From the IMG/VR virus record IMGVR_UViG_3300028283_000231: a stretch of 64,000 nt of DNA; one strand, 5' to 3'. Both the position numbers and the translations under genes were made by a program. The notes beneath the pieces are model-generated. The model had not been told where the DNA came from. It made no database searches and worked only from the letters and a program-made list of their open reading frames with translations. Shown piece by piece: positions 1 through 25,846 of the stretch; within the stretch, counting starts at the first letter, position 1; the number at the start of each line of letters is the position of its first letter. This DNA comes from a virus. Taxonomy: Duplodnaviria; Caudoviricetes.

Positions 1-50
1 GTTTTGAGACGATTCGATGCGTCACAATAAAAATGTAATCTGAAAACAAA

Positions 51-106
51 GAATACTTACAGCAAATAAAAAACTTTCTTCCAAAAAGTGAATAAAAAGT
101 ATTCTG
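51..106 (+). ncRNA. Stem-ACAGCAA structured RNA motif, copy 1, containing a Gly(UCC)-like anticodon stem-loop
   Basis: GAATACTT (51-58) pairs with AAGTATTC (97-104); ACAGCAA at 59-65; inner hairpin ACTTT-CTTCCAA-AAAGT at 73-89. Confidence 0.5.
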
Positions 107-112
107 TAATAC

Positions 113-184
113 GCAGGAGTAGTACAATGGTTAGTACGTCGGCTTGCCAAGCCGAGGATGTGAGTTCGATTCTCATCTCTTGCT
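113..184 (+). tRNA. tRNA-Gly(GCC)
   Basis: Cloverleaf: acceptor GCAGGAG/CTCTTGC, anticodon arm TCGGC-TTGCCAA-GCCGA, T loop TTCGATT, U73, no encoded CCA. Confidence 0.93.
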
Positions 185-202
185 CTATATATTAAAATAA
201 AT

Positions 203-274
203 GCGAAAGTAGTATAAAGGCTATTACTCCAGCCTTCCAAGCTGGACATGAGGGTTCGATTCCCTTCTTTCGCT
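203..274 (+). tRNA. tRNA-Gly(TCC)
   Basis: Acceptor GCGAAAG/CTTTCGC, anticodon arm CCAGC-CTTCCAA-GCTGG, T arm GAGGG-TTCGATT-CCCTT. Confidence 0.93.
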
Positions 275-279
275 CAATT

Positions 280-351
280 GCGAATATAGTTCAGTGATAG
301 AATATTTGCTTCCCAAGCAAAGGGTAGTGGGTTTGAGTCCCACTATTCGCT
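280..351 (+). tRNA. tRNA-Gly(CCC)
   Basis: Acceptor GCGAATA/TATTCGC, anticodon arm TTTGC-TTCCCAA-GCAAA, T arm GTGGG-TTTGAGT-CCCAC. Confidence 0.9.
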
Positions 352-353
352 CA

Positions 354-434
354 GAGATTAACTTACCTTTATTGATGCACACCATTGCGTGATTGGTAGG
401 AGATGTGGAGTAATTCTCCATCTACGTTAATCTC
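354..434 (+). ncRNA. tRNA-sized structured RNA of unknown class
   Basis: Perfect 9-bp closing stem GAGATTAAC/GTTAATCTC encloses two hairpins (TTACC...GGTAG and TGGAG-TAATT-CTCCA); lies between tRNA genes. Confidence 0.45.
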
Positions 435-443
435 AAAATTATT

Positions 444-542
444 GCGGAGGTAGTTTAGTGGGAAAATTGCCATGATCAGCCATACTGTTTAAGTGCAGAT
501 GAATTTGGTGGGTAGTCAAAGGTTCGAATCCTTTTCTTCGCT
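444..542 (+). ncRNA. tRNA-like RNA with Gly-type acceptor, D and T arms and an expanded, non-canonical anticodon arm
   Basis: Acceptor GCGGAGG/TCTTCGC plus U73, D arm GTTT-AGTGGGA-AAAT, T arm AAAGG-TTCGAAT-CCTTT; about 34 nt replace the 7-nt anticodon loop. Confidence 0.7.
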
Positions 543-544
543 CA

Positions 545-650
545 GGGTGGTTGGTATAATAGGTGAAACCATCAATGTTCTCGCCCTTCCCAGTAGCTTC
601 GGTGATTAATAGAACTTCGGTTCGCTGACCAAGGATAAAAGAGAACGCCC
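545..650 (+). ncRNA. Branched structured RNA of unknown class
   Basis: GTTCTC/GAGAAC and CCTT/AAGG stems, two C-UUCG-G tetraloop hairpins (GAAC-TTCG-GTTC is perfect), 5' GGGT able to pair with 3' GCCC. Confidence 0.45.
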
Positions 651-656
651 AACAAT

Positions 657-739
657 GCGGCTATCGTATAATGGCAACGAGAGTTAGATTATGTCGGTCT
701 TCCAAACCGAGGATGTGAGTTCGATTCTCACTAGCCGCT
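657..739 (+). tRNA. tRNA-Gly(TCC) with a hairpin insertion in the D loop
   Basis: Acceptor GCGGCTA/TAGCCGC, anticodon arm TCGGT-CTTCCAA-ACCGA, T arm GTGAG-TTCGATT-CTCAC; D loop contains extra AAC-GAGA-GTT. Confidence 0.85.
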
Positions 740-743
740 CAAT

Positions 744-811
744 GAATGCTCACAGCAACCAAAAGCTTTAATAAGCAACAAACTTGTAATTTGTAGAAAA
801 AAAGCATTCTG
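744..811 (+). ncRNA. Stem-ACAGCAA RNA motif, copy 2, containing a Thr(UGU)-like anticodon stem-loop
   Basis: GAATGCT (744-750)/AGCATTC (803-809); ACAGCAA at 752-758; ACAAA-CTTGTAA-TTTGT at 778-794. Confidence 0.5.
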
Positions 812-23999: not shown

Positions 24000-24843
24000 T
24001 GTGATTGATTCTGAATTAAAGGCTTATCTAATTGGACTTTTTTATGCTGATGCTTATCTATCAGATCGTGTTTTACAATTATATTTGTCTATAAAAGACA
24101 AAGAGTATGTTGAAAAATTAGCAAATATATTAGGAGTTAAAACACATAATAAAAAATTATCTATTGGATTTAATATATGCAACAAAAAAATTGTAGATTC
24201 CTTGTATAAAATGGGATTTATTAAAAGGAAATCATACCAAAGAGATGATATAGTCTTTAAAAATATACCAGATGAATTAAAAAGACACTTTATTAGGGGG
24301 TATTTTGATGGTGATGGAACAATATACATATCTAAATATAAAAAGAAAAATGTTGATTGGAAGGAAAGTATTAAATATGGAATTGGTTTTATATCAATAA
24401 ATAAAGAATTATTGAATAGTATTAAAAATTACTTCTCTGTATCATTAAGTTTATCAGATAAAAAACTGAGAAGTGAAAACTCTGGAAGATTTATAAGTGA
24501 TATTAACGATGAAGATCCATATGGTGAAGAACAATGGGAAAACAACGAAATTAAATATATTAGACTGATTTATAGTGGAAACATTATTTGTAAAAAAATA
24601 TTAGATTTTTTATATGAGGGATCTACTATCTATATGGATAGAAAACATGATAAATATAAAGAGATAAGTATATTTAAACCGAAAAATTATCATTTTCATA
24701 AAAGAAGTAATAAATGGAGATATGTGTATGATGATAATGGATTAAAGAAGTATAAATTGTTTAAAACAGAAGATGAAGTTAAAAACTTTATAAAAAATAA
24801 AATTAAAAATTATGAAAGCTTTACTAGCAAAATGGTTGGATAG
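23983..24843 (+). CDS. Two-motif LAGLIDADG homing endonuclease with AP2-like C terminus
   Basis: AYLIGLFYADA and HFIRGYFDGDG; overlaps both DUF2828 fragments. Confidence 0.88.
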   Translation: MKINFDVIDSELKAYLIGLFYADAYLSDRVLQLYLSIKDKEYVEKLANILGVKTHNKKLSIGFNICNKKIVDSLYKMGFIKRKSYQRDDIVFKNIPDELKRHFIRGYFDGDGTIYISKYKKKNVDWKESIKYGIGFISINKELLNSIKNYFSVSLSLSDKKLRSENSGRFISDINDEDPYGEEQWENNEIKYIRLIYSGNIICKKILDFLYEGSTIYMDRKHDKYKEISIFKPKNYHFHKRSNKWRYVYDDNGLKKYKLFKTEDEVKNFIKNKIKNYESFTSKMVG

Positions 24844-25846
24844 AAAAGGTCCAAAGGCAAATAAAATTAGAAAATATCTTGGTTTAACACCAAAGGATTA
24901 CAGAAAGATGATAGTATCGCTATCACAGACTGTTGAGCAGTTAATGTGCGCAAAGCAATTTGAAGGCATTAACTACGAACACGTTCCTTCTGTAGCTATG
25001 AACAAGTACAGAAAAGCTTTCTACAAGAAAGATTCTGGTAGGTTCGCAGAATACATCGCAAATGTAAAGAGTGGTGTTGCCAAGATGTGCGCAAGCGCTA
25101 TCTACCCATACCAACTTTACGACGCTTTCCTAAGAGCTAGGACAGAATTCGATAATTTGGCTATTGAGGCTCAATGGTATTCGTTGCCAAACTACATGGA
25201 AGGATCAACCGAGAGGTTGCTTCCAATGGTTGATACATCGGGTTCTATGGAATTCTATGGTGGATTACCAGCAAGAGCAGGTTGGTCACTTGGTCTTTAT
25301 ATTTCTGAAAGAAACGAGAGCATTTTCAAGGACGCTTTCATGACTTTCCATACTCATCCAAAGATGATGTACTTACAGGGTAGCATCGCCGAAAGGGTTC
25401 GTGCTATCAGAGGAGTAGAATGGAAAGGTACTACAAACCTTGAAGCAGCGTTTGAATTATTGCTTAACAAAGCAATTGAGAACAAGATTTCTGAAGCAGA
25501 AATGCCAACAGTTATCTTGATCTTATCAGATATGCAGTTTGACCCATCGAAAGCTTGCTACAACGCAAACGCTTACGAAATGATGAAAGCTCATTACGCT
25601 GCAGCTGGATATAAGATTCCAAGAATCATCTTCTGGAACCTTAGAGCAGCAGAGGATAAAGTAACAGCATCAGCATTTGACGAAAATGTTGGTCTTGTAT
25701 CTGGTTTCAGCCCAAGTGGTTTGAAGGCTATTCTTCAAGGAGAAGAAATTCAAGATGAAGTAAAGGTCGAACCAAAGAAAGAAACTCCTTACGAATTGAT
25801 GATGAAAGTCATTGACGGTGAGAGATACGCAGCAGTTACTATATAA
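24812..25846 (+). CDS. DUF2828 protein, C-terminal fragment with vWA domain
   Basis: LLAKWL, INYEHVPSVAM..Y.KAF, MIDAS VDTSGSM, ILSDMQFD, IIFWNL. Confidence 0.88.
   Translation: MKALLAKWLDRKGPKANKIRKYLGLTPKDYRKMIVSLSQTVEQLMCAKQFEGINYEHVPSVAMNKYRKAFYKKDSGRFAEYIANVKSGVAKMCASAIYPYQLYDAFLRARTEFDNLAIEAQWYSLPNYMEGSTERLLPMVDTSGSMEFYGGLPARAGWSLGLYISERNESIFKDAFMTFHTHPKMMYLQGSIAERVRAIRGVEWKGTTNLEAAFELLLNKAIENKISEAEMPTVILILSDMQFDPSKACYNANAYEMMKAHYAAAGYKIPRIIFWNLRAAEDKVTASAFDENVGLVSGFSPSGLKAILQGEEIQDEVKVEPKKETPYELMMKVIDGERYAAVTI

Follow-up and report, generated by a model that had tools for sequence, protein, structure and literature searches.

RESULTS

The window analyzed here is a 64,000-nucleotide stretch of DNA (G000:C1:24481-88480) that forms part of a 108-kb IMG/VR record of a giant lake phage (IMGVR_UViG_3300028283_000231). 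Our subject is a set of short elements in that window in which a terminal stem and the heptamer ACAGCAA frame a variable interior, which in some copies is a hairpin resembling the anticodon arm of a tRNA. The first 1.4 kb of the window is ~90% identical to the 735-kb uncultured phage LR756501. A tRNA array fills the first 1.3 kb, where ARAGORN calls five tRNAs and Rfam adds three aberrant ones, and genes are packed at a density of the prokaryote type. Further downstream, on the plus strand, lie a gene for the RNA ligase RtcB (22272-23312; PF01139, E = 1.7e-25) and, directly after it, a gene for a DUF2828/DUF7788 protein (23529-25846).

Two complete elements lie within the array, both on the plus strand. 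In element 1 (50-108), AGAATACT (50-57) pairs with AGTATTCT (98-105), the ACAGCAA box (59-65) is followed by an A-rich linker, and the tail is CUGU (104-107). In element 2 (743-812), GAATGCT (744-750) pairs with AGCATTC (803-809), the box is at 752-758, a small hairpin occupies 765-776, and CUGU is at 809-812. Between the two terminal stems, an A-to-G change on one strand is accompanied by a T-to-C change opposite. Both elements end in CUGU and lie 3 to 8 nt from neighboring same-strand tRNA genes: tRNA-Gly(GCC) starts at 113, just 3' of element 1, and element 2 sits between a tRNA at 657-739 and a tRNA-like unit at 817-896. A covariance model of the family (A2, R1), built from 15 members, scores element 1 at 66.1 bits and element 2 at 61.1 bits. 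The Rfam model RF01414 (Dicty_Class_I_RNA) gives 37.1 bits for element 1, 33 bits for the LR756501 copy and 25.7 bits for element 2, all below its gathering score of 41.5; the other Rfam families, ribozymes included, came nowhere near threshold at the elements.

The interiors of both elements carry what an earlier sequence-only reading had called anticodon stem-loop mimics, and both hairpins read directly from the DNA: ACTTT-CTTCCAA-AAAGT at 73-89 and ACAAA-CTTGTAA-TTTGT at 778-794, both on the plus strand. Each has the geometry of an anticodon loop, with a 5-bp stem, a 7-nt loop, U33 and a purine at position 37 (C-U-UCC-A-A and C-U-UGU-A-A, respectively), and the RNAfold minimum-energy structure of each element consists of the outer stem plus the 7-nt-loop hairpin. 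Moreover, the loops match those of the phage's own tRNAs. CTTCCAA is the anticodon loop of tRNA-Gly(UCC) at 203-275 (plus strand) and of the Rfam-only tRNA at 657-739, and CTTGTAA is the loop of a phage tRNA-Thr(UGU) located ~2.1 kb upstream of the window (G000:22354-22426). D, T and acceptor arms are absent from both elements, as the sequence-only reading had stated; an additional copy, element 0, does, however, carry a T-loop-like hairpin.

Element 0 is cut by the window start, so that only its 3' part (1-44, plus strand) lies within the window; the whole element is L001:1402-1495 (G000:C1:24431-24524). Its handle stem is GATTACA/TGTAATC within a terminal stem of 9 bp, R1 scores it at 35.1 bits, and its fold has a z score of -3.1. 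Its cargo, as we call whatever the handle of stem and ACAGCAA box holds, is AACAA-CTGAAAA-TTGTT (anticodon GAA, Phe) plus the T-loop-like hairpin GACG-ATTCGATG-CGTC. A fourth handle copy (20589-20650, plus strand; R1 44.6 bits, its LR756501 ortholog 48.1 bits; fold z score, -3.0) lies outside the array in a 390-nt noncoding stretch 1.6 kb upstream of rtcB. Its handle (stem GGATTAC/GTAATCC, TT, ACAGCAA at 20598-20604) spans 20589-20639 and is followed by a U-run, and it holds no anticodon-like hairpin. The surrounding noncoding DNA (20340-20730), upstream of an S24-peptidase-like gene, contains several strong hairpins and, at 20420-20449, another short stem-plus-ACAGCAA; this stretch may represent a small-RNA gene in its own right. 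Altogether, R1 finds four copies in this record and six in LR756501, where two further copies stand beside tRNAs, namely, LR14 (loop CTGTAAA) and LR18 (138 nt, with a tRNA-like body).

The elements belong to a wider family. Members were gathered by pattern scans of viral and metagenome contigs and filtered for a closing stem, which yielded dozens. They share a 7- to 8-bp terminal stem that starts with G, a single-stranded NACAGCAA that begins 1 to 2 nt after the 5' stem strand (as it does in elements 1 and 2), an A-rich linker with variable cargo, and the 3' strand followed by UG(U). The consensus reads, 5' to 3', (A)AG, a stem of ~6 to 8 bp (often GAWURC), 1 to 2 nt, ACAGCAA, NN plus AAAA, cargo, an A-rich linker, the 3' strand and UG(U). 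Across 15 members, four of the seven handle pairs changed on both sides, and 97% of cells were paired, versus ~30 to 50% in slid controls. Since these seeds were picked for having a stem, independent evidence of covariation comes from the LR756501 ortholog of element 0, in which the stem is GATTACT/AGTAATC, i.e., a compensatory T-A to A-T exchange. Among the 122 matches listed by a pattern scan of cellular genomes, there was no convincing element. Full-text literature searches found no publication on the handle family, on a link between DUF2828 and RNA, or on such anticodon-loop mimics.

Minimal, armless tRNAs that are charged and decode would fit the 7-bp terminal stem, which resembles an acceptor stem, as well as the canonical anticodon loop and a spacing within the array like that of tRNA genes. 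Neither RF00005 nor ARAGORN matched at 50-108 or 743-812, however, and there is no T or D arm to supply the geometry for EF-Tu or the ribosome. The terminal stem is near-uniform across anticodons, the opposite of what amino acid identity elements would look like, and the conserved 3' tail is UG(U) instead of a discriminator plus CCA. Finally, cargo-less and non-anticodon members use the same frame. Armless decoding tRNAs were rejected on the uniform "acceptor" sequence, the missing CCA context and the lack of a tRNA model match, and we regard them as the least probable identity of the elements.

To ask whether the inner loops are anticodon-like, every stem of at least 4 bp closing a 7-nt loop was listed in 72 nonidentical members and compared with dinucleotide shuffles and with natural sequence, i.e., same-length windows from the same loci with tRNAs masked. 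U at loop position 2 together with a purine at position 6 occurred in 28 of the 72 members, versus 2.9 ± 1.6 in shuffles and 4.8 ± 2.0 in natural sequence. The strict form CU-NNN-AA occurred in 21, versus 0.28 ± 0.53 and 0.19 ± 0.42, and the observed counts were reached by none of the 1,000 or 300 control runs. The inner loops of the homologues are therefore not random. The 21 strict members represent 17 distinct hairpins and 11 anticodons (UCC, UGU, GUA, GAA, UUU, UGA, CGA, GAU, GUC, GCA and ACU). The sequence-only reading had suggested checking whether homologous elements consistently show canonical loops with varying anticodons. The varying anticodons and an excess far above chance were found; the consistency was not, as canonical loops occur in ~40% of the 72.

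Identical loops recur on different but complementary stems: CTTCCAA on ACTTT, TTCA and ATTC; CTTGTAA on ACAAA, CAAA and TTAGA; and CTGTAAA on TCAA and TTCA. This recurrence argues for selection on both loop sequence and pairing. In the phage lineage, the mimic loops equal those of its own tRNA-Gly(UCC), tRNA-Thr(UGU) and tRNA-Tyr(GUA), and the Phe loop matches at six of seven positions. With constant loops, covarying stems and 11 anticodons, the inner hairpins are anticodon stem-loop (ASL) mimics kept by selection.

Hairpins arise easily in an A/T-rich genome, and the fold of element 2 is no better than that of shuffled sequences (z score, -0.6), as would be expected of decaying tRNA pseudogenes or functionless chance hairpins. 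That explanation is nonetheless very improbable, as handle and loops stay constant across dozens of viral and metagenome contigs that are unrelated to one another, strict loops number 21 versus 0.2 to 0.3 in controls, and a search around DUF2828 genes (below) found 37 elements, versus 0 to 1 for most scrambled motifs.

The loops might instead titrate modification enzymes of the anticodon loop or bind cognate codons, either in leader RNAs or on the ribosome, and so tune decoding in the infected cell, with no role in defense against nucleases. C32, A37 and A38 are enriched in the mimics compared with real same-locus tRNAs that have U33 and a purine at 37 (21/28 versus 65/162; P = 8e-4), and position 36 is A or U in 9 of the 11 displayed anticodons. 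Anticodons with A36 or U36 belong to the tRNA classes in which A37 is modified to i6A or t6A. The strict CU-NNN-AA filter in itself favors A37 and A38, however, and the elements are linked to RtcB and a Ro60-like protein, with no modification enzyme and no codon-like partners linked to them in these data. Such a regulatory role seems improbable to us, if less so than chance or decay.

Members without an ASL contain T-loop-like hairpins, UGGU-loop hairpins, tetraloops, permuted acceptor(+NCCA)/D/T bodies or no cargo. A cargo of the UUUC-AAUGGU-GAAA type (loop A-A/U-U-G-G-U) recurs at L419:471, L386:1065, L302:2500, L325:284, L447:4509 and L451:4775, and the UUUC...GAAA form resembles a D loop. 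In LR18 (L018:1499-1639, minus strand, in LR756501) and L271:610-735, the cargo is a circularly permuted tRNA-like body without an anticodon arm, in the order acceptor 3' strand, N-CCA, a linker of 5 to 6 nt, acceptor 5' strand, D arm, mini hairpin and T arm. The handle exits at the junction of the T arm with the acceptor 3' strand. The two are orthologs whose acceptor stems are wholly different yet paired, and NCCA is retained.

A handle also stands immediately in front of the DUF2828 gene. This minimal, cargo-less copy (23475-23507, plus strand) consists of AGAAAAC, GA, ACAGCAA, 10 nt, GTTTTCT and a final G, with 22 nt between its end and the start codon, and LR756501 has the same sequence. 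In six other loci (L417, L419, L422, L500, L501 and L522), DUF2828 is preceded by comparable minimal hairpins whose stems differ. The structure of the minimal handle rests on this comparison because RNAfold favors a competing fold. The minimal handle lies in the leader of the DUF2828 gene, where it may serve as an operator. A 61-codon open reading frame (ORF) that follows rtcB (23314-23497) stops within the minimal handle, and its last codons include ACAGCAA.

The sequence-only reading had connected the elements to a repair operon, and that connection holds: the ACAGCAA handle occurs 1.6 kb upstream of rtcB and again 22 nt before the DUF2828 gene, and handle and gene co-occur across viral records. 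DUF2828 was encoded in 11 of 21 element-bearing viral records, which are mostly small fragments, versus none of 18 controls that match the search pattern but lack the stem (P = 2e-4), and an element lay no more than 160 nt upstream of 8 of the 11 DUF2828 genes examined. The converse search started from the protein. DUF2828 relatives are encoded on at least 556 viral contigs, and strict criteria applied within 5 kb on either side of the best 80 loci found 37 elements in 29 loci, just up- or downstream of the gene, with all 37 on its strand. Scrambled motifs of the same composition gave 0 to 1 matches in five of six cases, and the sixth, which overlaps the real box, gave 4. We conclude that the elements are probably DUF2828-linked handle RNAs, and of the claims made here on their nature, this is the one we hold with most confidence.

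The DUF2828 protein is predicted to resemble Ro60. An AlphaFold model of one family member (pLDDT, 80; pTM, 0.75) was used for a fold search in which the best 13 PDB matches were all Ro60/TROVE proteins, aligned over the full length (E = 9e-8 to 2e-4; TM score, 0.5 to 0.6). They include Ro60 of phage phiLo, Xenopus and human Ro60, and Deinococcus Rsr, and isolated vWA domains rank after them. Moreover, the DxSGS MIDAS motif is conserved in the DUF2828 alignment. The family occurs in eukaryotes too (Atlas rows). In the window, the DUF2828 gene is split into ORFs 23529-23999 and 24812-25846 by a 1,046-nt insert (23831-24876) with a LAGLIDADG ORF (23983-24843), such that three ORFs lie in three frames, and the insert may be a mobile intron. 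LR756501 encodes DUF2828 as an intact 486-amino-acid ORF.

The anticodon-like cargo is distributed unevenly. It is rare among the copies next to a DUF2828 gene (1 to 2 of 37) and, among the 72 pattern-ascertained members, goes with proximity to a tRNA (within 100 nt in 19/28 members with such cargo versus 16/44 of the others; P = 0.015), and all 35 neighboring tRNAs are on the same strand as the elements. With so few gene-proximal copies carrying an anticodon-like loop, the role of the handle does not need the loop. Proximity to tRNAs might, on the other hand, suggest that the elements are processing punctuation, i.e., leader/trailer helices that guide endonucleolytic maturation of the tRNA array, with no DUF2828 partnership and with the ASL-like hairpins as relics of tRNA genes that gave rise to the spacers. 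Elements lie 3 to 15 nt from same-strand tRNAs, the larger LR18 and L271:610 copies enclose a permuted tRNA-like body, and a broken copy in the same L271 locus (5651), which we had considered as a "scaffolded tRNA-Tyr," lacks the 3' strand and has a whole tRNA-Tyr at the cargo position. Yet 33 of the 37 handles found by starting from the protein directly flank DUF2828 and are more than 100 nt from any tRNA, and the element is absent from most tRNA junctions of the same arrays. Moreover, relics would not hold exact 7-nt loops on stems with compensating substitutions. We therefore give punctuation a slim chance, on a par with a role in tuning decoding.

The remaining parts of the tRNA array include several irregular genes. 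An aberrant tRNA-like gene at 444-542, found by Rfam (38.6 bits) and missed by ARAGORN, carries a 34-nt insert where the anticodon loop would be. The tRNA-Gly(UCC) at 657-739 (Rfam, 53.6 bits; missed by ARAGORN) has ~11 extra nucleotides between the D arm and the anticodon arm, and the poor tRNA-like unit directly 3' of element 2 (817-896) scores 30.5 bits with Rfam and is also missed by ARAGORN. At 983-1101, a tRNA acceptor 3' strand upstream of its 5' strand was seen by eye. Contigs from two lake-water metatranscriptome runs are 100% identical to 1-102, 209-747 and 1109-1279 and lend weak support to transcription of the array, as they reveal no ends, joints or strand; the contigs of these two runs do not cover 753-1081, which includes element 2.

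DISCUSSION

Here, we describe a family of handle RNAs that occur in phage tRNA arrays and beside genes for DUF2828 proteins. The elements are best read, by analogy, as Y-RNA-like partners of a Ro60-like protein, with a cargo that in the array copies mimics anticodon loops. The genetic tie between handle and protein, next to RtcB, points to a previously undescribed viral ribonucleoprotein that would act on damaged tRNA or on enzymes that bind tRNA. The explanation as a whole, in which a handle RNA, a Ro60-like partner and a bait or adaptor cargo act together, is one we lean toward with less assurance than the DUF2828 linkage, and the putative function of the cargo as bait or adaptor is, taken by itself, only tentatively proposed.

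How the system might work can be sketched as follows. Elements 0, 1 and 2 would be small-RNA genes of ~56 to 95 nt that are cotranscribed with the tRNA array and released by the processing of flanking tRNAs, with RNase P acting at the downstream tRNA and 3' trimming at the upstream one. The handle, an end-paired stem plus single-stranded ACAGCAA, would serve as the recognition module for the DUF2828/DUF7788 ring protein, much as Y RNAs are held by Ro60. The protein probably binds its own message through the leader handle as well, and the position of that handle hints at feedback control. The cargo would point away from the ring and show the anticodon loop of a phage tRNA on a weak stem, where it could engage readers of anticodon loops such as host anticodon nucleases or loop modification enzymes. 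Those readers might be sequestered on the Ro-like particle, or the mimic might be cut instead of the real tRNA and then resealed by RtcB. We infer every step beyond genomic linkage and fold, namely, binding, processing and the bait/adaptor role. The proposal of the sequence-only reading that the elements are nuclease decoys or sensors is compatible with the data.

Several observations weigh against this interpretation. PF05731 (TROVE) is absent from DUF2828, and the best TROVE match in a PDB profile search was not significant (E = 0.88), such that the relation of DUF2828 to Ro60 rests on a predicted fold with TM scores of 0.5 to 0.6. Unless the insert is spliced out, the DUF2828 protein may be absent in this phage. 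The metatranscriptome libraries may include DNA. The mimic stems are weak, A/U-rich and 4 to 5 bp long, and the fold of element 2, as noted above, does not exceed shuffles. The ASL loop is present in just ~40% of pattern-ascertained members and in almost none of the gene-proximal ones. The phage lineage has a near-complete tRNA set (LR756501), so the existence of a cognate tRNA for every displayed anticodon says little. Finally, we know of no anticodon nuclease for several of the displayed anticodons (Gly UCC, Thr UGU and Phe GAA).

The closest parallel is the Ro60/Y RNA system. A Y RNA binds the Ro60 ring through its stem and uses its distal module to recruit other factors or block them; YrlA of bacteria is a tRNA mimic, and the rsr-yrlBA-rtcBA operon responds to damaged tRNA. 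In the phage as in these systems, a ring protein with HEAT repeats and a vWA domain (in the phage, by predicted fold) is encoded close to small RNAs with an end-paired handle, the distal RNA module mimics tRNA, and the RtcB ligase is in the same gene neighborhood. Known examples are the rsr-yrlBA-rtcBA operon of Salmonella, with YrlA and YrlB (Chen et al. 2014, PMC4201824), and Thermus phage phiLo, in which phiRo60 occurs with Yrl1 and Yrl2 (PMC12135203). The systems also differ. The phage protein is DUF2828/DUF7788, not Pfam TROVE, and the handle combines a short stem with single-stranded ACAGCAA, whereas the Y RNA helix has a CGAA/bulge signature (PMC12135203). A jumbo-phage survey mentions only TROVE proteins with tRNA-like partners (PMC7824862).

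The cargo differs from YrlA as well, as in the phage it is an isolated anticodon stem-loop, exactly what YrlA misses, and most copies are within tRNA arrays. The T arm/D arm/closed acceptor module of YrlA is absent from elements 1 and 2, whereas LR18 and L271:610 carry acceptor(+NCCA)/D/T bodies. Moreover, the YrlA model RF02553 (gathering score, 69 bits) gave no match at the elements, and its best match, of 22 bits, was at tRNA genes.

The handle also resembles the Class I RNAs of Dictyostelium. Class I RNAs are ~42 to 65 nt long, with a 6-bp stem that has a 5' G, the 11-nt motif CCUUACAGCAA next to that stem, and CUGU at the end (PMC7919456). Element 1 agrees with the motif at 10 of 11 positions, is closed by a G-C pair, ends in CUGU and measures ~58 nt, and element 2 has CACAGCAA and ~69 nt. 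In both families, a G-starting stem of ~6 to 7 bp, often preceded by AA, is immediately followed by (C)CUUACAGCAA (exactly CUUACAGCAA in element 1); the interior is A-rich and variable, the 3' end is CUG(U), and the RNAs are ~55 to 60 nt long. The interiors in the supplement of Kjellin et al. 2021, by contrast, show no 7-nt anticodon-type loops, and Class I RNAs are reported there to be unique to dictyostelids (PMC7919456). The elements lie in a bacterial phage and not in a social amoeba, so they have no DUSE promoter, which in Class I genes is ~60 nt upstream, and in Dictyostelium the protein known to bind Class I RNAs directly is Rnp1A, an RRM protein. The phage handle matches Class I RNAs in every described feature of the mature RNA, a likeness that may stem from homology or from convergence on a common partner.

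Phages are known to counter host nucleases with tRNAs, as in the case of a T5 tRNA-Lys variant that neutralizes PARIS (PMC11464382). Like those tRNAs, the elements are RNAs that phages encode among clustered tRNA genes, and both expose an anticodon loop against a background of host defenses that target tRNA. Anti-nuclease tRNAs, however, are full length and decoding, and they replace the cleaved tRNA or resist cleavage, whereas the elements are not tRNAs; they present many different anticodons in a single common frame, and their genetic link is to a Ro60-like protein.

Split, tri-split and permuted tRNA genes occur in archaea and red algae, and they resemble the elements in consisting of tRNA pieces (an anticodon arm, or an acceptor/T/D body with NCCA), a leader-trailer helix and an association with RtcB. 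The elements differ in that no bulge-helix-bulge or partner pieces were found, the hairpins are self-complete, and their A/U-rich stems are unlike those of real tRNAs. In view of the permuted order of LR18 and L271:610, we considered in particular whether the mimics are anticodon cassettes to be joined by RtcB, through circularization or trans-splicing, into the anticodon-less body at 444-542, and we rejected that identity for want of complementary flanks and a bulge-helix-bulge motif.

A broader speculation, which we consider unlikely as it stands, is that the stem-plus-ACAGCAA handle defines a second Ro/Y-RNA branch built on DUF2828, spread over hundreds of phages and some cellular genomes and including the Dictyostelium Class I RNAs, in which the handles of large phages display tRNA parts as nuclease baits that RtcB reseals. 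The displayed parts would be the anticodon loops of chosen isoacceptors, T-loop-like modules and acceptor-CCA modules. The baits would capture or absorb host defense nucleases that target tRNA, and RtcB would reseal both the cut baits and the cut tRNAs. If the narrower reading of the elements as Y-RNA-like partners of a Ro60-like protein holds, RNA partners would be named for DUF2828, a large protein family of unknown function, and the Ro60/Y-RNA principle would extend to a new handle. An isolated anticodon loop would be displayable on such RNAs, which would provide a testable anti-nuclease route besides spare phage tRNAs. Moreover, the near-identical Class I handle would make the partner and role of the Dictyostelium RNAs testable by way of a DUF2828-type protein.

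Other members of the family vary in arrangement. Just downstream of DUF2828 in eight loci (L460, L462, L465, L466, L469, L471, L479 and L494), copies share the stem GGTTCC/GGAACC around an interior of repeated AAGCAA/CGCAA boxes with no hairpin, and these look like a separate subfamily. Many loci carry two to five tandem units. Two of them, L302:2058-2560 and L325:71-400 (both minus strand), contain five handle RNAs in a row with no tRNA called in the locus, and in these arrays UAA stands before each unit and UGAUAA or UGAAUA after each. In an IMG/VR contig labeled GVMAG, i.e., a giant-virus MAG (metagenome-assembled genome) bin, two weaker stem-plus-AACAGCAA units adjoin tRNA-Leu and tRNA-Pro (L079:965-1200, minus strand). 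Finally, suppressor-type tRNAs occur near some members: two tRNA(UUA) genes lie beside an element in L066 (7343-8570), and the LR756501 loci L437 to L443 contain two tRNA(CUA) genes and three tRNAs with anticodon calls of two or four bases.

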